The notes under the pieces were generated by a model. That model was not told where the DNA came from and ran no database searches. It saw only the letters and a program-made list of their open reading frames with translations. This document shows, one piece after another, positions 3,287 to 60,412 of a DNA stretch of 64,000 nt. The stretch lies in NCBI GenBank assembly GCA_017467625.1, contig JAFUSN010000004.1, positions 146,259 through 210,258 of the forward strand. Direction: 5' to 3'. Position 1 is the stretch's first letter. Every line of letters starts with the position of its first letter. A program made the position numbers and the translations under genes. This DNA comes from Clostridia bacterium. GTDB lineage: Bacteria > Bacillota > Clostridia > Christensenellales > UBA1242.

Positions 3287-4222
3287 ATGAAAAGAAAAGA
3301 AGAAAATAAAATACCGGTAATTTTAAATTGCGACACTGGTATTGATGATGCTGTCGCTTTAATTTTGGCTGTTAAATCAAATAAACTTGATATAAAGTTA
3401 ATCACCACAGATGTTGGAAATGTTGCAACAGATAGGGCGGCTTTAAACACCTTAAACATTTTGGAACTTATTGGTGCGCCAATAATTCCTGTTGTTGCAG
3501 GAGAGGGAAAGTGTTTTGAAATTGAGCGTCCAAGAGTTGCTGTTCATGGAAATGGGGGCCTCGGTGAATTTATTTTTGAGCCACATGACAGAAATGTGAT
3601 TCAGGCAGATGCAGTTGACAGAATGTATGAGGTTTTAATGTCATCAAGTGAACCAGTAACAATTATTTGTGTTTCACCAACAACAAATGTTGCAAAACTA
3701 GTGACTAGATATCCAAAGTGCAAAAACAGAATTGCAAGAGTTGTTTTAATGGCTGGTACAATTGAAGAGGTTAAAAGAAATGAAATGCCTTATCCAGAAT
3801 TCAACATTGCGTGTGATCCTGAGGCGGGTGTTGCACTTTTTAAGTCAGGAGTTCCAATTGAAATTGTTCCAATGGAAATGGGGCACACCGCTTATTTGAC
3901 ATGGAGCGAAGTTTTTAAAACAAAAGTTAAAAATTACACTGGTGCAGTGCTTGAAAATATTTATAGGAGTTATAAAGATAGGCATGTTAAAAATGGAATT
4001 GCAACGCATGATGGCTGTGCAATTGCTTATGTAACAAATCCAGAACTTTTTAAAACTAGCCCAGTTAATGCAAAAATTAAATATTTTGACAGCATAAATT
4101 CTGGCGTGCTTGTTATGGATTTTAAAAAGAAACCAAATGCAATCACTTGCGTTTCAATGGATATTCCAAAGTTTAAAAAATTGTATTTTAAATGCTTATC
4201 AATGTGTAAAAAAGAAAAATGA
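3287..4222 (+). CDS. Inosine-uridine preferring nucleoside hydrolase family protein
   Basis: N-terminal DTGIDDAVAL aspartate cluster typical of IU-nucleoside hydrolases. 311 aa. Confidence 0.85.
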   Translation: MKRKEENKIPVILNCDTGIDDAVALILAVKSNKLDIKLITTDVGNVATDRAALNTLNILELIGAPIIPVVAGEGKCFEIERPRVAVHGNGGLGEFIFEPHDRNVIQADAVDRMYEVLMSSSEPVTIICVSPTTNVAKLVTRYPKCKNRIARVVLMAGTIEEVKRNEMPYPEFNIACDPEAGVALFKSGVPIEIVPMEMGHTAYLTWSEVFKTKVKNYTGAVLENIYRSYKDRHVKNGIATHDGCAIAYVTNPELFKTSPVNAKIKYFDSINSGVLVMDFKKKPNAITCVSMDIPKFKKLYFKCLSMCKKEK

Positions 4223-5886
4223 CAAAGAAAAAATCTGAATATGGCATAATCAAAAGTTTTGGACTTTTGTGGAAATTTATGGGAATTCGTGAAAGGATAG
4301 AGTTTATTTCTCTATTCTTTTTTGCCATGATTTCCGCACTTGCAAATGTATATAATGCCCTTATGCCTTCAATTATGATTGCAAAATTTACCGGTGGTGA
4401 TGTTTGGTTTATTAAGGGCGCAAGTTTAGCTGATATGAACATTTGGGTTTTTATGTTGTTGTTTTGTGGATCAATGGGAATATTTTGGGCGTATTATCTT
4501 TTTAATTATCGTTTAATTGATGTGTTTGCAAGAAAGATGATGGCAAAAACCAATGAAAAAGCACAAGAAATTATTTTGCTTGAACGAAAAAATTTAGATT
4601 TTGGAATGACTATTGGTGAAGCAAACTATATTTTGAAAAATGCTGTTGACAACATTTATGCAATGTTTGAGCCGGTTTGTTGGCGATTTGCAATAAACAT
4701 AATGAGCATGATTTTCATGATAATTCAGTTGTTTGTTTTAAACACAACAATTGGATTTGTTGCGCTTGGACTTATTGTTTTAATTTTAACTCTTGTTATG
4801 TTGAGAACAAAAATTGAGGAACCGATTATTCGTGGAATTGAAAAAACCAATGCAAAAATTGGAAACCACTTTTTAATGTCGCTCACAAATCTTCCAATGA
4901 TAACAATTTTTGAATCAAAGAAAAAAGAACTTGAAGAACTCAAAAAACTCAACACATCGTTTTATAAATCGCACAAGAAAAAAGCGAACATAATTTTTTG
5001 GTATTGGACGCTTGTTTCATTTGTTGAATACATTGGACTTGCGGTTTTGCTTGCAACTTATGTAACAATTATTGGAGAGGGTGTTCAAGCCACAAACATA
5101 ACCACAATTATAAATGAAATGCTTGCCGTGTTTGGTTATGTTGAAGTTTGGGGGTATTTGCTTGGAGATCTTCAGGCGGCCTCAATTAAGTTTGGAAATT
5201 TGCGTAAACTTTATCCAGATGATTCACAAGCCTTAAAAGAGAAACGTAAATTTAATGAAGCCGTTGCAAATTCCAAAATTTATAGTTTGAAAGTTGAAGA
5301 TATTGAAGTGAAACTTGGAAACTTCAAAAAAACTTATAATGTTGAATTTGATGCAGGAAAAATTTATGTCATAAGCGGGCAAAGTGGACAGGGAAAAACA
5401 ACTTTAATCAATGCAATGTGTGGGTTGCGTGAAATGACTTCTGGACATATTGTGGTGAATAATAATCATAAGATCAAAAACCTTTATGATTATAAATATA
5501 AAATATCATATTTATTTCAAGATTCAGTTTTGTTTGATAGGAGCATTGAAGCAAATATTGCCTATCCAGAAGATGAACTTAATGAAGAAGCCCAACAGTT
5601 AATTAAGCGTTTTGATTTAACAAAGGTGATAACCAGACAAGAAGAAAAGGGATCAATTGCTGCAACGCTTTCTGGGGGAGAAAAAAAGAGAATTGATATT
5701 GCAAGAACATGTAGCAAAGATAAAGACATTTATTTCTTAGATGAGCCAACCAATGATTTAGATGCAAAAAATGTTTCACGAGTTCTTGAAACAATTAAAG
5801 AACTTGCTGAAAAAAACAAAATTGTTATTGTTGTTTCTCATGATGAGAGATGTATTCAAATTGCTGATGAAATCGTAAATTTATAA
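4219..5886 (+). CDS. ABC transporter, fused permease/ATP-binding protein
   Basis: N-terminal TM region. Walker A GQSGQGKTT, signature LSGGEKKR, Walker B IYFLDEPT. ATGA overlap with the upstream gene. Confidence 0.85.
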   Translation: MTKKKSEYGIIKSFGLLWKFMGIRERIEFISLFFFAMISALANVYNALMPSIMIAKFTGGDVWFIKGASLADMNIWVFMLLFCGSMGIFWAYYLFNYRLIDVFARKMMAKTNEKAQEIILLERKNLDFGMTIGEANYILKNAVDNIYAMFEPVCWRFAINIMSMIFMIIQLFVLNTTIGFVALGLIVLILTLVMLRTKIEEPIIRGIEKTNAKIGNHFLMSLTNLPMITIFESKKKELEELKKLNTSFYKSHKKKANIIFWYWTLVSFVEYIGLAVLLATYVTIIGEGVQATNITTIINEMLAVFGYVEVWGYLLGDLQAASIKFGNLRKLYPDDSQALKEKRKFNEAVANSKIYSLKVEDIEVKLGNFKKTYNVEFDAGKIYVISGQSGQGKTTLINAMCGLREMTSGHIVVNNNHKIKNLYDYKYKISYLFQDSVLFDRSIEANIAYPEDELNEEAQQLIKRFDLTKVITRQEEKGSIAATLSGGEKKRIDIARTCSKDKDIYFLDEPTNDLDAKNVSRVLETIKELAEKNKIVIVVSHDERCIQIADEIVNL

Positions 5887-5918
5887 AAGGAGTGATGGCT
5901 CCTTTTATTTTTTTTTTA
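5886..5918 (+). terminator. Rho-independent terminator
   Basis: Hairpin aaaggag-tgatgg-ctccttt followed by a long T-run. Confidence 0.75.
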
Positions 5919-5986
5919 ATTTGGTGGCACGGGTTTAACCATTTTGCCTAAATTGTGTGTTATGATGGTTTTAGCAGGGGGCAAAA

Positions 5987-7504
5987 ATGGCAAATATAAT
6001 TAATCTCACTGAAAAGGGGAACAGACTTGACATAACCGACACCTACACACCAATTGTGTGTGGAAATTCAAACTATTCTATTCATTTTTCTTTTAGTGAA
6101 ATGTGGCAAAGTGTGGTTCATAAAACCGCAATTTTTATTGTTGAAGGCAAAAAATATGCCGTTGATTTCACAGGAACCGATGTAAAAGTTCCAGCGCTTC
6201 CAAATGCGCCATTTGTTTTTGTGGCACTTATTTCTGCAGATGAGGGAGATGAAATCATTTCAACAACAGCCGTTAGGCTTAGACTGGAAAAAACACCCAT
6301 TTTAGATGACATGGGTGATTTTAGCCCAGTAAAAAACTATATAAGTCAAATTAACACGCTTCTTAATAAAATTGAAACGGGTGATTTTGTGGTTAATCAA
6401 GCAGAAAATGCCATCCATGCAGAAAGTGCAACAATTGCAACTTCTGCCACCTCTGCTGAAAGCGCGTCTTATGCAGAAACAGCCGGCAGCGCATCAACAG
6501 CCGAAAGTGCTGATTATGCAACGAGTTCCGGACACTCTGAAACTGCTGGCTCTGCAACAAGCGCTAACACAGCAACTACTGCAACCACTGCAGACAATGC
6601 AACGCATGCAACCACTGCAGACAACGCAACGCATGCAACTAGTGCAGACACGGCCACAACTGCAACAAATGCAACTAGTGCAGACAATGCAACACATGCA
6701 ACCAGTGCAGATACAGCCACAACCGCAGCAAATGCAACGCATGCAACTAGTGCAGATTCTGCAACCACTGCGGAAACATCTGCAAATGCAACATATGCAA
6801 CAAGTGCTGGAACGGCCTCAGTTGCAATAGCTGCACAAAATGTTTCAAATGTAAATTTGCTTATTAATGGCGATTTTAAAATAAACCAAAGAGGGAAAAC
6901 CACATATTCAACAGCAAACAAATATACTGTGGACAGGTGGAAGCTTGTTAGTGGTTCATTGTCAGTTGTTTCAAATGGAATAAACTTAAATGGAACAATA
7001 ACTCAAACATTAGAAAAAGTTCCACAGGGAAATGTTGCTGTAAGCTCAAATGCTGGGACTGTTTCTTATTCAAACGGTGTAGTAACGCTCACAGCTTCAA
7101 ACAAAGTTATAACATGGGTAAAGCTTGAAATTGGAAGCGCAAAAACACCATTTTCACCTAAAACATATGCGGAAGAACTAAGTGATTGCCAACGTTATTA
7201 CAACAAGCTGAATGTTGCTTATTTGAATGGTTTCAACTCAGGGAATGATATTCGTTCTGTTCGTGCATTTCTTCCACTTCCGGTTGAAATGAAGTCAGGT
7301 GTTTCGCTCATTAAAGAAAACACAAGGTGTTGGATTCATGGCTCATCTGGATATTTTGGTGAAGCCACAAATATTGAATTATTTGGCAGATATTCAAATG
7401 GACTTGCTTTAACAATTACGTTAAGTTCAAGTGTTAGCCCAGCAGCAGATGTAACCTTTATTTGTGAAATAACAAACAATATTGAATTTGAATCTGAAAT
7501 ATAA
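5987..7504 (+). CDS. Phage tail-fibre-like protein (orphan) with an Ala/Thr/Ser-rich repeat shaft
   Basis: 505 aa. The central section of about 145 aa consists of A/T/S repeats (ADNATHAT/SADTATTA). The C-terminal region carries NLLINGDFKINQRG and ELSDCQRYY, motifs I associate with phage tail-fibre tip domains. AGGGGG RBS. Own terminator. Confidence 0.6.
   Translation: MANIINLTEKGNRLDITDTYTPIVCGNSNYSIHFSFSEMWQSVVHKTAIFIVEGKKYAVDFTGTDVKVPALPNAPFVFVALISADEGDEIISTTAVRLRLEKTPILDDMGDFSPVKNYISQINTLLNKIETGDFVVNQAENAIHAESATIATSATSAESASYAETAGSASTAESADYATSSGHSETAGSATSANTATTATTADNATHATTADNATHATSADTATTATNATSADNATHATSADTATTAANATHATSADSATTAETSANATYATSAGTASVAIAAQNVSNVNLLINGDFKINQRGKTTYSTANKYTVDRWKLVSGSLSVVSNGINLNGTITQTLEKVPQGNVAVSSNAGTVSYSNGVVTLTASNKVITWVKLEIGSAKTPFSPKTYAEELSDCQRYYNKLNVAYLNGFNSGNDIRSVRAFLPLPVEMKSGVSLIKENTRCWIHGSSGYFGEATNIELFGRYSNGLALTITLSSSVSPAADVTFICEITNNIEFESEI
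6587..6775 (+). repeat. In-frame imperfect tandem repeats (27-nt core unit ACTGCAGACAATGCAACGCATGCAACC, with 36- and 45-nt variants)
   Basis: Directly visible: units begin at 6587, 6614, 6641, 6677, 6704 and 6749. The wider low-complexity A/T/S-coding tract spans about 6401-6841. Confidence 0.8.
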
Positions 7505-55814: not shown

Positions 55815-56429
55815 ATGGGTATATTTGATGATTTATTAGGAAACTGGATTCAAATAATTGATGAGCAAAATGAAATTACAATAGATAATTATGGATATGA
55901 GACAGGTGTAATTGAAGGAACGACAGGAAATCACTGTGTGAAATGTGTTGCTGTAAATAAATGTTGGTTTAAGAACGAAAAAGAAAAGAAACCAGAAAAA
56001 TTTAACTATACAGGGGTTAGTATTGTTGATACGATTGCAAAAGGTTTATTTCCTGGCTTATATCACTATAGATGTCATTGTAAAGATATACCAATTTAAG
56101 TGTCTTCAATAGAATCTATCCAATTGTTAGTATCAGAAGGTAAGAAAAATTGGCTCATAAAAGACAAAATTGATTGGATAAAATCGTTTGGATATCACGA
56201 TGTTAATGCTTTTGTGAATACTTTATTACATAAAACTCAAGAAGCATATTTTTACGGAAACTATATTATAGTTAATCATACAAAATATGGATGTAAAATT
56301 AATTTACAAGTAGATATTCCTGGTGTAAACGAAAAAAGTGGAAAAATTTACAAAGTTAAAACTAATTATATGATTTTTCCAAACGGAAAATTAAAATGCA
56401 ATACTTTATTAGGAGGTTGGCAAAATTGA
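55815..56429 (+). pseudogene. Remnant of a MuF (SPP1 gp7)-type polymorphic-toxin C-terminus: MuF-end fragment plus a DUF6883-like cargo domain, interrupted by an in-frame TAA
   Basis: ORFs 55815-56099 and 56100-56429 share one frame and are separated only by TAA at 56097-56099. The first carries NHCVKCVAVNKCWF...PGLYHYRCHC (compare the MuF C..C...G..F...P.H.NCRC pattern). The second carries SFGY...TKYGCKINLQVDIPG...KVKTNYMIFPNGK. The N-terminal bulk of MuF is absent. Confidence 0.5.
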
Positions 56430-57112: not shown

Positions 57113-57138
57113 ATAAAAAAAAGAAGACTTCCGTCTTC
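57113..57138 (-). terminator. Rho-independent terminator of tRNA-Thr
   Basis: On the minus strand: gaagac-ggaa-gtcttc followed by T8. Confidence 0.7.
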
Positions 57139-57242: not shown

Positions 57243-57272
57243 ATTATAAAACAAAAGAACAGACATTGTCAA
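57243..57272 (-). promoter_or_regulatory. Promoter of tRNA-Thr
   Basis: On the minus strand: TTGACA (57272-57267), 18-nt spacer, TATAAT (57248-57243). Confidence 0.55.
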
Positions 57273-57309: not shown

Positions 57310-58293
57310 TTACTGAAATGTTTTCATATATTCAAGAAGTTCTTGTTCAAGAGATTCAAGCCTTGAAATTTCGTCATTCGTTGTGGCTTTTGCTCTTGCT
57401 GATTCAATGCGCGCCTTGAGGGATTGAGCACAATCAAATTTATTAATTTTTCTTTCATATTCAACAGCTTGTTTTGGTGTAACAATAAAATCTGTTTGCG
57501 TTAAATTTTGAGTTGGAAAATCCATTAAGTTTAAAATGTTAATTTGTTCAGCAGAAAGTTTATTATTTATTGTTCTGTAAATAGGAACTGGCTCTAATTT
57601 TGATGTTGCGCCTCTCTTTAAAATTTCAATTATGTCGCAAGCTCCAGTTTTGTACATATAGTCAATTGTTTCAGGGAGCCCATTATAAGCCAAGTCATGA
57701 TTTTCTGGGGGAACCCATCTGCAACTTCCAGTTTGCGCAAGTTCCAATTGACATCTTTCAATCATTGACATTTTGCTTTCAAAATCAGATACAGCGAGCG
57801 CTCTAACAATAACAATGTATCCAGCCTTTTTTAATTTTGCGATTGCGTTGTCAACAATAAAATTGTTTTTAAGTGTTTGATGCAAAATGATGTTATATTT
57901 TCCCTCAATCATTTTATCAATCATTCTTGGTGTTGCAGCAAATGATAACTGGTCTGTTAAATCCGTAAAAAGCTCAGGATAGTTTTCATTTATTTCTGCA
58001 ACAGCTGGGTGAGAATGCCTGTAAATATCATTATCAATAATTGCAGTATTTTCATTTAAATAGGAAATTGAATTTCCAATTATACTTGTTTTTCCAGCCC
58101 CAGGCTGTCCACCTGCAACAATTGCAATTGGGTGTTTTTGTGGTGAAATTGAACAAATTTGTGATTGGAAAATATTTTCTAAAACTTTTTCAAATTCTTC
58201 ACCTTTAATATTATAATCGTCAATTGTTTTTCCGTATTTTTTTAGTCTTTCGTTTATTTCATTTTGCCTTTTACTCATATTAGCATTAGCCAT
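57310..58293 (-). CDS. Zeta-toxin-family P-loop kinase (paralog 1)
   Basis: Walker A GGQPGAGKT. IIDNDIYRHSHP (compare the zeta/PezT IDxDxFR..HP pattern). TDQLSFAATP. HQTLK. Start at MANANMSK (58293) with an AAGGAG RBS, rather than 58356. Confidence 0.8.
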   Translation of the reverse strand: MANANMSKRQNEINERLKKYGKTIDDYNIKGEEFEKVLENIFQSQICSISPQKHPIAIVAGGQPGAGKTSIIGNSISYLNENTAIIDNDIYRHSHPAVAEINENYPELFTDLTDQLSFAATPRMIDKMIEGKYNIILHQTLKNNFIVDNAIAKLKKAGYIVIVRALAVSDFESKMSMIERCQLELAQTGSCRWVPPENHDLAYNGLPETIDYMYKTGACDIIEILKRGATSKLEPVPIYRTINNKLSAEQINILNLMDFPTQNLTQTDFIVTPKQAVEYERKINKFDCAQSLKARIESARAKATTNDEISRLESLEQELLEYMKTFQ

Positions 58294-58501
58294 TATTTCT
58301 CCTTCGTAGCATTGGTAAATATTCATCAATAGCTTTATCAATTGTGTTTTTATCATTGCGCAAAATCAAGTTTCTTTCTAATGTAAGCATTTTAACAAAT
58401 TCTTTATCTGTCACTTCATTTGAATTTGCAAATATCATTAAAAGTTCATTAACGGTGTCAAATGCCAAATCCTTTTTCATTTCGTCATTCATAAGCTCCA
58501 C
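58286..58501 (-). CDS. Small acidic helical protein, putative cognate antitoxin (epsilon-like position)
   Basis: 71 aa. It overlaps the zeta paralog 1 start by 8 nt. The start is ambiguous: GTG at 58501 or ATG at 58492. It is a weak paralog of ORF 59457-59678 (..IDKAIDEY.. against ..VIDELLEEY..). Confidence 0.55.
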   Translation of the reverse strand: MELMNDEMKKDLAFDTVNELLMIFANSNEVTDKEFVKMLTLERNLILRNDKNTIDKAIDEYLPMLRRRNNG

Positions 58502-59464
58502 CTATTTTTTTGCACGAATTTCTTTAACTGTTTGTCTCAAAATTTTAATTCTGTCTTTTGCTTCGCTTGGTTCATGCCCACAAATCAAAAAGTCGTCAAA
58601 AGCAGCATCAATCAAACGATCATCAATTTTTTTAAGAGTTTCATCTTCGCTTAAAATTCTTCCATTTTTAATTGCGTCCACAGAGTTTTTATAAGTGTTC
58701 TCAATATTTGTTTTAAAATATTTTTCAATTAGTTCGTTTTCTTGCGCAGTATTTTTTTCATTGAGTTTGCAATAAATAATTCTTGGCGATGTTGGGTTTG
58801 TTTTTCCACGCATTACAACTTGAATGAAGTTGTAGTTTTTAATATCATTTTCAATGTATGAAAGGGTATCGGGGATTGAATTAAAAGCTTTGTCGTGATT
58901 AATTGGGTCAACCCATCTGCAAGTTCTGTCAATTTTAAGTTGAACCAAGCATCTTTCCATCATTGAAAGGTAACTTTCAACACTTGCTACGGCAAGTGCC
59001 ATAACTCCAACGGTGTAACCATTGTCTCTAAGTTTTTGCATTGCGTCATCTGCAATTCTTTTGCTTTTCAATGTTTGGTGAATAACAAGGTTATATTTTC
59101 CCTTAATCATTCTATCAATAATGATTGGGGTTGCATAAAAACTTAATTGATCAGTGCAATCTGTCATAAGTTCCGCATATTTTGAATTTATTTCTTTAAT
59201 TTTAGGATGAAATTCACGATATGTATCATTATCAATAATAATATTGTCATCTTTCAAACACTTTTGAGCATATCCAATAATTCCAGTTTTTCCACCACCT
59301 GATTGTCCACCAACGACAACAGCGATTGGATGCTCATGTGATTGAACTCCAAGTGTTAAACAATCACAAATAAGGTCAATTGTTTTATCAAGTTCTTCTT
59401 GGCTGAGTTCATATTTTTTTGCAATTTCTTGAATTTCTTCTGATGAATATTTATCGTTAACCAA
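58502..59464 (-). CDS. Zeta-toxin-family P-loop kinase (paralog 2)
   Basis: Walker A GGQSGGGKT. IIDNDTYREFHP. TDQLSFYATP. HQTLK. CRWVDPINHD. Collinear similarity to paralog 1 throughout the core. Confidence 0.8.
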   Translation of the reverse strand: MVNDKYSSEEIQEIAKKYELSQEELDKTIDLICDCLTLGVQSHEHPIAVVVGGQSGGGKTGIIGYAQKCLKDDNIIIDNDTYREFHPKIKEINSKYAELMTDCTDQLSFYATPIIIDRMIKGKYNLVIHQTLKSKRIADDAMQKLRDNGYTVGVMALAVASVESYLSMMERCLVQLKIDRTCRWVDPINHDKAFNSIPDTLSYIENDIKNYNFIQVVMRGKTNPTSPRIIYCKLNEKNTAQENELIEKYFKTNIENTYKNSVDAIKNGRILSEDETLKKIDDRLIDAAFDDFLICGHEPSEAKDRIKILRQTVKEIRAKK

Positions 59465-59678
59465 TTGCGTTCCCCCTTGAATTTTCGTATTCTTCTAAAA
59501 GTTCATCAATAACTTTTTTGTTAAAGTGATAAACTTGTTTGCGCATTTCTAAAATACGCAAAACTTTTTCATTGTTAATGTTTTTACTTTGAACACATGC
59601 TTCGCCAAGCATTTTCTCAACTATGGCTTTTGCAAGTTCAATTTTTGTGTTATTTTCCATAAAATTGCTACTTCCCAT
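59457..59678 (-). CDS. Small helical protein, putative cognate antitoxin of zeta paralog 2
   Basis: 73 aa, with an 8-nt overlap onto the downstream zeta gene. Confidence 0.55.
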   Translation of the reverse strand: MGSSNFMENNTKIELAKAIVEKMLGEACVQSKNINNEKVLRILEMRKQVYHFNKKVIDELLEEYENSRGNAIG

Positions 59679-59872
59679 TTAATTTTACAGTGAAAATTAT
59701 AGCATTTTAAAATTATTTTAGTCAATGAAGAAATTTACAAAATTTCACACTAATTTTTTATAATAAATATTACTTATTTTTATATCAGCAAACATAATAA
59801 AACAAAATAATTTCATTTTGAAAATATCTGAGTTTATGATACAATAAAAATAGATTTTTAAAGGAGAATTTT

Positions 59873-60412
59873 ATGGAAAATAAATATAAAGGAACACAAA
59901 CCGAAAAAAACTTACAGGCAGCATTTGCTGGTGAATCACAAGCAAGAAATAAATACACTTATTTTGCTTCAGTTGCAAAGAAAGAAGGGTATGAACAAAT
60001 TGCAGAAATCTTTTTGAAAACAGCTGAAAATGAAAAAGAGCATGCAAAAATGTGGTTCAAAGAGCTCGCTGGAATTGGAACAACAGCTGAAAATTTGGCA
60101 GCTGCAGCTGATGGTGAAAACTATGAATGGACTGATATGTATGAAGAATTTGCAAAAACTGCTGAAGCAGAAGGTTTTTCAGCTCTTGCATTTAAATTTA
60201 GAGCAGTTGGGGCAATTGAAAAAACGCATGAAGAAAGATATAGAGCCCTTTTAAAAAATGTTGAAACAAAGGAAGTTTTTGAAAAGGGAACTGTTAAAGT
60301 TTGGGAATGCAGAAATTGCGGACATATTGTTGTTGGAACAAAAGCTCCAGAAGTTTGTCCAGTTTGTGCACATCCACAAAGCTATTTTGAAGTTAGACAG
60401 GAAAATTATTAA
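59873..60412 (+). CDS. rbr: Rubrerythrin
   Basis: Ferritin-like EKEHAKMW / EKTHEERY di-iron motifs plus the C-terminal rubredoxin CRNCG...CPVC. Confidence 0.9.

Follow-up and report, generated by a model that had tools for sequence, protein, structure and literature searches.

Two epsilon/zeta (PezAT)-type bicistronic modules probably lie side by side on the chromosome of an uncultured gut Clostridia, known from a metagenome-assembled genome (MAG), in which they form a block of four genes (NCBI locus tags IJ538_03155 to IJ538_03170); the second module would be resident at a tRNA-Thr gene and the first, belonging to a lineage of the yebC/ruvC region, would have been put in front of it. The block is part of a 64,000-nucleotide (nt) stretch of contig JAFUSN010000004.1, referred to here as the window, and was picked out by an earlier note made from the sequence alone. 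The kind of system is known, and its kinases already carry a label in the public record, where NCBI names both kinases 'zeta toxin family protein' and both small proteins 'hypothetical protein'. What is new here is the family of partner proteins, the variant substrate pocket, the existence of fused relatives and the proposed composite origin of the tandem.

Structure of the locus

A six-frame listing of open reading frames (ORFs) places the four minus-strand genes in series as small, kinase, small, kinase and ARAGORN places tRNA-Thr beyond them, so the order given by the earlier note is borne out. In the direction of reading, the genes are:

59457..59660, minus strand: small ORF A, 67 aa from the ATG at 59660 (59457-59678 and 73 aa in the ORF listing); putative antitoxin of kinase 1
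58502..59464, minus strand: kinase 1 (zeta1), 320 aa, TTG start, ribosome-binding site (RBS) AAGGGGGA; overlaps small ORF A by 8 nt
58286..58492, minus strand: small ORF B, 68 aa from the ATG at 58492, RBS AGGTGG (GTG at 58501 and 71 aa in the ORF listing); putative antitoxin of kinase 2
57310..58293, minus strand: kinase 2 (zeta2), 327 aa counted from the overlapping ATG, RBS AAGGAG; overlaps small ORF B by 8 nt

The 8-nt overlaps predicted for both modules are confirmed on the strand that is read, where they are TTGGTTAA and ATGGCTAA, and a good RBS precedes each kinase (AAGGGGGA and AAGGAG). ATG 59660 and ATG 58492 are the more likely starts of small A and small B, as judged from the sequence, and the RBS of small B (AGGTGG) begins inside the stop codon of zeta1. 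With these starts the modules would not abut at 58501/58502, as had been thought, but would be separated by 9 nt, a layout that still suits coupled translation. Small A is identical to MBQ8451758.1 (67 aa), small B is MBQ8451756.1 (68 aa) and zeta2 is MBQ8451755.1. All four genes are found in tandem in a second, independent assembly (L110).

The kinases

By profile, by sequence and by predicted fold (the last from a model of zeta1), both large proteins are P-loop kinases of the Zeta_toxin family. Pfam PF06414 (Zeta_toxin) matches zeta1 with 102.4 bits (E 2.9e-29) and zeta2 with 107.1 bits (E 1e-30), far above the gathering cut-off of 22.3, and PezT and zeta are the sole sequence matches of either kinase in the PDB; zeta1 finds PezT at 1.3e-18 and zeta at 1.7e-16, and zeta2 finds zeta at 1.9e-18 and PezT at 1.1e-16. 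The nearest characterised relatives are all toxins. When an AlphaFold2 (AF2) model of zeta1 (predicted local distance difference test, pLDDT, 88.5; predicted template modelling score, pTM, 0.84) was searched with Foldseek, the best eight matches were 1gvn, 3q8x and 2p5t structures (E 1.6e-15 to 1e-13, target-normalised TM 0.74-0.81), with AvrRxo1 (E 2e-5) and gonococcal zeta1 (ng_zeta1, 6e-4) farther away.

The hallmarks of zeta and PezT noticed at the outset, a Walker A and an IIDND motif, hold up in both translations and in the alignments. Walker A reads GGQSGGGKT in zeta1 and GGQPGAGKT in zeta2, further motifs are IIDNDTYREFHP and IIDNDIYRHSHP respectively, and alignment to zeta and PezT recovers equivalents of the Walker A Lys46, the catalytic Asp67, Arg158 and Arg171 of zeta (IIDND, ER, CR). 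The two kinases had been called collinear paralogues of less than 50% identity, and pairwise alignment agrees, giving 46% over a core of 225 aa (E 9e-72) and 36% over the full length. The C-terminal extension of 90-100 aa, also proposed for both, is what remains past the Pfam match; in the alignments the N-termini are shifted by 13 and 22 residues, so that the kinases exceed full-length zeta (287 aa) at the C-terminus by only about 20 aa, and PezT by about 53 aa. The Foldseek alignment of the zeta1 model to zeta extends over some 300 columns, and the tail of zeta1 is predicted to form two long helices (residues 261-295 and 301-319).

The small partner proteins

The small ORFs encode genuine partner proteins without a helix-turn-helix (HTH), predicted by modelling to consist of three helices. 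Small A and small B share 21-23% identity (pairwise E 0.014) and can both be placed in a 23-sequence alignment of their family (A3), which has the consensus MNDNTKIELAxEIMN...LLxExKxM..FN..VIDKII..Y, in keeping with the suggestion that they are weak paralogues. Small A is closest to the partners of the zeta1 relatives, and small B is the most diverged member of the family, with <=29% identity to any relative. In the AF2 model of small A (pLDDT 83.7) the helices span residues 2-24, 31-44 and 48-63. The family has no match among the models of Pfam, NCBIfam, PHROG or PADLOC.

In every close relative examined the kinase gene has a small ORF just before it, with an overlap or a gap of at most 3 nt, and about 20 related loci have this tight arrangement; the sole exception among the loci examined in detail is a more distant relative (L024, 5962-7118), in which the family member lies downstream of its kinase. 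Distances among the small proteins track those among the kinases (Mantel r 0.815, p 2e-4, 19 pairs). From this linkage and co-variation, from natural fusions of the two proteins, and by analogy with epsilon and PezA, which block the ATP site of their kinases (PMC3062530, PMC6362051), we infer that the small proteins would act as antitoxins.

Two variations in the arrangement were observed among relatives. The order of small and kinase genes varies across the wider family, as L024 illustrates, and L002 (1609-2079), L004 (281-750) and also L005-L007 have a pair of paralogous small ORFs, one of 80-81 aa and the other of 69 aa, in front of just one kinase. The additional ORF could be an orphan antitoxin-like copy or the leftover of a lost module.

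Origin of the tandem

The earlier note had left two origins side by side, an old duplication or separate acquisition of the modules, and had proposed a survey of related loci as a check. As far as their sequences indicate, the modules are old paralogues for which separate acquisition is better supported than local duplication. In a bootstrapped neighbour-joining tree (200 replicates) zeta1 groups with the kinases of L001, L002 and L004 at 99.5% bootstrap (53-57% identity), and their modules are all located between yebC and ruvCAB-queA-tgt; zeta2 groups with L010, P0005 and P0006 at 88.5% (45-46% identity). Of the zeta2-lineage loci, all those whose downstream sequence is long enough (L010, L111, L112 and L113) have one module only, and a tRNA-Thr(GGT) in the same orientation comes after it. 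The survey therefore shows the relatives of the two kinases occupying different sites, yebC/ruvC in one case and tRNA-Thr in the other.

A tandem duplication on site, followed by divergence in place, would fit the collinearity of the genes, their common 8-nt overlap design and a residual DNA similarity of 72% at a constant offset of 1198 nt. L020 does offer a true local pair, its kinases A and B being sisters (95% bootstrap). Standing against separate acquisition, moreover, is the fact that the zeta1 and zeta2 lineages are themselves sister clades (69% bootstrap), so that an ancient duplication with later relocation could also have produced the present arrangement. Nevertheless, zeta1 and zeta2 are sisters in 0 of the 200 replicates (0%), each has closer relatives elsewhere (57% for zeta1, 45-46% for zeta2) than the 36% identity between the two, these relatives sit at different loci, and genomes with a zeta2-type module at tRNA-Thr have one module only. 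We consider duplication on site to be unlikely. On the preferred account of separate acquisition, module 2 would be a long-term resident upstream of tRNA-Thr and module 1, from the yebC/ruvC lineage, would have been placed directly before it.

Substrate pocket and points against the assignment

In zeta, UDP-N-acetylglucosamine (UDP-GlcNAc or UNAG) is contacted by Asp67 (3'-OH), Thr118 (beta-phosphate), Arg120 (phosphates), Thr128 (uracil) and Glu100 (ribose 2'-OH) (PMC3062530), and the GTXR motif (zeta G117-T121) is regarded as needed for UNAG binding (PMC6362051). Judged by alignment, the window kinases retain the catalytic and phosphate-binding residues and have the uridine-specific contacts replaced. 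This is one of several observations that weigh against the epsilon/zeta-type assignment. The EGTGR of zeta is HQTLK in both window kinases, so that GTXR becomes QTLK, with the Thr retained and Arg changed to Lys, and in an ungapped alignment Glu100 corresponds to Pro113 and Thr128 to Ala141 (zeta1 numbering), with the same Pro and Ala in zeta2. The NCBIfam PezT equivalog is far from matched, the two kinases scoring 93.9 and 65.7 bits where the cut-off is 470. With the small-protein family, a profile search of the PDB found neither epsilon nor PezA, probabilities stayed <1% in hhalign comparisons with the epsilon and PezA of annotated plasmids, and Foldseek with the small A model returned no match with E <1; the resemblance to epsilon that the earlier note had seen thus extends to size and helix count and not to detectable homology. 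Its statement that the small ORFs have no HTH stands: Pfam, NCBIfam and PHROGs reveal no DNA-binding domain in either. Nor does the operon have an omega-like gene, small A being the first gene after the promoter, and no autoregulator is present. Finally, all loci are chromosomal and beside housekeeping genes, with no mobile-element genes and no close plasmid or phage relatives.

HQTLK is invariant across the close clade; a further alignment (A2) shows no variation at Thr112 and Ala141, and both window kinases have Pro113. An exhaustive HMMER search gave 2772 cluster representatives of the zeta-like family, and among the best 150 of these the motif is EGT[ML][RK] in most and H[QK]T[LF]K in only about 20. 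A metagenome scan added a single close locus (L089). Phosphorylation of UDP-GlcNAc by the window kinases is possible but should not be assumed from their sequences, because GTXR reads QTLK and E100 and T128 are Pro and Ala.

A rival idea is that the proteins are not toxins at all: they would be resident kinases of small molecules, metabolic or regulatory in role, that have a small regulatory subunit and are kept for a cellular function. Such a role would suit the stable chromosomal sites by ruvCAB-queA-tgt and tRNA genes in several genomes, the lack of mobile-element genes, of a GC anomaly and of an autoregulatory DNA-binding domain, and a pocket unlike that of UNAG kinases. It sits poorly with the patchy and rare distribution of the clade, for which a word index of 5.8 billion proteins gives 9 matches. 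The copy number is variable, with orphan small ORFs and fusions, and the nearest characterised relatives are, again, all toxins. Divergence is also extreme in an otherwise conserved slot: among L001, L002, L004 and L020, RuvC is 80-93% identical, as against 28-53% for the kinases in the same slot, which argues for an accessory slot of fast turnover rather than a housekeeping gene. A housekeeping role is, on balance, improbable, and we continue to favour toxin-antitoxin modules.

For these modules we envisage the following mechanism. A single promoter upstream of small A, the only strong one found for the four-gene block, would serve all four genes, and in each module the small protein would be translationally coupled to a zeta-type P-loop phosphotransferase. 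Each kinase, given its Walker A Lys, catalytic Asp and two lid Arg, would phosphorylate a small phosphate-bearing metabolite with ATP; the substrate would be held through the retained phosphate-binding Thr and basic residue, the uridine-reading residues of zeta being replaced. Each small protein would bind and inactivate its own kinase, as gene linkage, co-variation, natural fusions and the analogy with epsilon/PezA suggest, most likely by covering the ATP site.

A more far-reaching proposal, which we put forward only tentatively and think rather doubtful as a whole, is that the HQTLK clade represents a distinct class of zeta-like toxins acting on a substrate other than UDP-GlcNAc, since uridine-reading residues are lost and phosphate-binding residues kept; that its partners form a new family of three-helix antitoxins, working in trans or fused at either end; and that placement at tRNA genes and yebC-ruvC marks a recombination-driven exchange of modules without mobile-element genes.

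Comparison with known systems

The epsilon/zeta system of Streptococcus pyogenes plasmid pSM19035 (1GVN, 3Q8X) has the same kinase fold and provides the best Foldseek match of the zeta1 model. The likeness includes the equivalents of Lys46, Asp67, Arg158 and Arg171, a small HTH-less antitoxin gene directly upstream (as in L107) and a three-helix partner. However, identity is 21-25%; EGTGR, E100 and T128 are replaced by HQTLK, Pro and Ala in the window kinases; the antitoxin has 90 aa as against 67-68 aa here, with no detectable homology; the window has no omega regulator; and the system of pSM19035 is plasmid-borne while the window locus is chromosomal. PezAT of Streptococcus pneumoniae (2P5T), the best PDB sequence match of zeta1 (1.3e-18), is closer in being a chromosomal bicistronic module with the antitoxin gene upstream, but PezA has an N-terminal HTH that the window small ORFs lack, the equivalog cut-off is not reached and GTXR is not kept.

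Non-canonical zeta-like kinases have substrates that include UDP-sugars (4' phosphorylation) and NAD (PMC6362051, PMC5923241). Rv0366c/Rv0367c of Mycobacterium tuberculosis, epsilon1/zeta1 of Neisseria gonorrhoeae and AvrRxo1-ORF1/ORF2 of Xanthomonas likewise combine an intact P-loop and catalytic Asp with an altered pocket. By fold, however, they are far more distant (AvrRxo1 2e-5 and ng_zeta1 6e-4, as against 1e-15 for zeta), and the window clade keeps the Thr and basic residue of GTXR and has neither the OB domain of ng_zeta1 nor the RHH of Rv0367c.

EzeT of Escherichia coli carries a cis-acting antitoxin domain fused to the N-terminus of a zeta-like kinase (PMC4826407). In domain order it is matched by relatives of the window kinases in which the small domain is fused at the N-terminus in a single chain (P0070, P0195, P0130 and P0149). 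In other relatives the small domain is fused at the kinase C-terminus (L020 kinase B, P0065, P0067, P0074 and P0108), an order undescribed for EzeT, whereas the window small ORFs and kinases are separate cistrons in different frames and fused forms occur in relatives only. The possibility that the C-terminal tails of zeta1 and zeta2 contain a cis-acting domain of antitoxin type was considered and ruled out, as the small-ORF profile does not match them.

The L020 tandem (4679-7131), in the yebC/ruvC slot, consists of a small ORF, kinase A (335 aa) and, after these, the 376-aa kinase B. Kinase B ends in a whole small-ORF domain, 67 residues long, whose initial Met is retained (MNNNTKIELAKE...); this natural fusion of kinase and antitoxin runs in the reverse order to EzeT. 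Some cluster representatives match the kinase profile in two stretches (P0064, 880 aa; P0066, 606 aa; P0086, P0105, P0122 and P0144), and the two that were inspected, P0064 and P0066, are single chains with a pair of zeta-like kinase domains, each having its own P-loop, which amounts to a fusion of tandem modules.

Promoters, tRNA and genomic neighbourhood

Signals and landmarks around the four-gene block are as follows:

59696..59725, minus strand: sigma-70-type promoter TTGACT-18-TATAAT with TG extension, 11/12 consensus, upstream of small A
57243..57272, minus strand: promoter of tRNA-Thr, TTGACA-18-TATAAT, 12/12 consensus; -35 region conserved in L010, L111 and L112
57147..57221, minus strand: tRNA-Thr(GGT) (ARAGORN, Rfam), 88 nt past the zeta2 stop
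57123..57138, minus strand: hairpin of an intrinsic terminator, GAAGAC-GGAA-GTCTTC, with a T-run; lies past the tRNA, and no other terminator-like site follows the block

The tRNA-Thr(GGT) is a positional landmark common to the zeta2-lineage modules. A functional operon of kinase and tRNA was ruled out: relatives have an intrinsic terminator between the kinase and a conserved, separate tRNA promoter, and the link is therefore positional and not operonic. An integrative island at the tRNA was likewise ruled out, as the window has no integrase, no repeat of either tRNA end and no GC shift, and the modules are on the 5' side of the tRNA. A plasmid or phage origin was also rejected, there being no relatives >33% identity in either collection. 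The window has no further copy of the kinase or small-protein family.

Proximity to tRNA genes (within about 250 nt, and about 800 nt for L016) is far commoner among modules of the clade than would be expected. This applies to L003, L008, L010, L011, L012, L013, L016, L018, L111-L113 and the window, and the tRNAs concerned are Thr(GGT), Ser(TGA), Ser(GCT), Arg(ACG) and Leu/Lys, with no integrase or att repeat alongside. Among the more distant zeta-like loci, none of the 11 scanned has a tRNA in its flanks (mostly about 6 kb on each side). Homologous recombination that uses conserved tRNA genes as its anchors is one possibility.

A perfect 17-nt inverted repeat, AATTTTATGGAAAATAA, occurs at 59650-59666 and 59867-59883. 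Its arms cover the start and first codons of two divergent genes, small A (ATG 59660) and rubrerythrin (ATG 59873); it could have arisen by chance in AT-rich DNA or be a shared initiation or regulatory element.

The earlier note had also suggested a defence or addiction hotspot next to an island of toxin remnants, and this part of it finds no support. Two plus-strand ORFs nearby, 55815-56099 and 56100-56429 (94 aa and 109 aa), are the two parts of a single gene, which is interrupted by a TAA at 56097-56099; the codon is GAA in L110 (gene at 3725-4339, minus strand), with two more single-nucleotide polymorphisms within 12 nt. The intact L110 protein has 204 aa and belongs to a family of >100 clusters from Clostridia and Erysipelotrichaceae MAGs, uniformly of about 205 aa and without a Pfam match. 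To judge from these sequences, the gene at 55815-56429 is a conserved gene with a premature stop and not a fragment of a larger toxin. There is, besides, no integrase, att repeat or GC anomaly, PADLOC matches neither kinase, and the modules have no other defence genes close by.

These last results bear on whether the modules are mainly anti-phage abortive-infection units, the tandem widening the range of triggers. Such units would account well for a hypervariable slot of fast turnover and for the repeated stacking of paralogues (in the window, L110 and L020), and the phage protein family phrog_25145 matches the kinases (E 1e-27 to 1e-30). The lack of a PADLOC match, of neighbouring defence genes and of close relatives in phage or plasmid collections makes this very unlikely as their main role. 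An anti-phage function is compatible with the toxin-antitoxin modules proposed here, and does not exclude them.

Significance

This study adds a rare branch from uncultured Clostridia to the epsilon/zeta family, together with a partner family that no library annotates. It does not overturn current understanding and its importance is modest, but it raises three questions. The first is whether zeta-like kinases without the GTXR/E100/T128 pocket poison peptidoglycan synthesis or act on another metabolite. The second is whether stacked modules are insulated from each other when their kinases are 36% identical and their small proteins 21% identical. The third is how two-gene modules may move between conserved chromosomal anchors without integrases.

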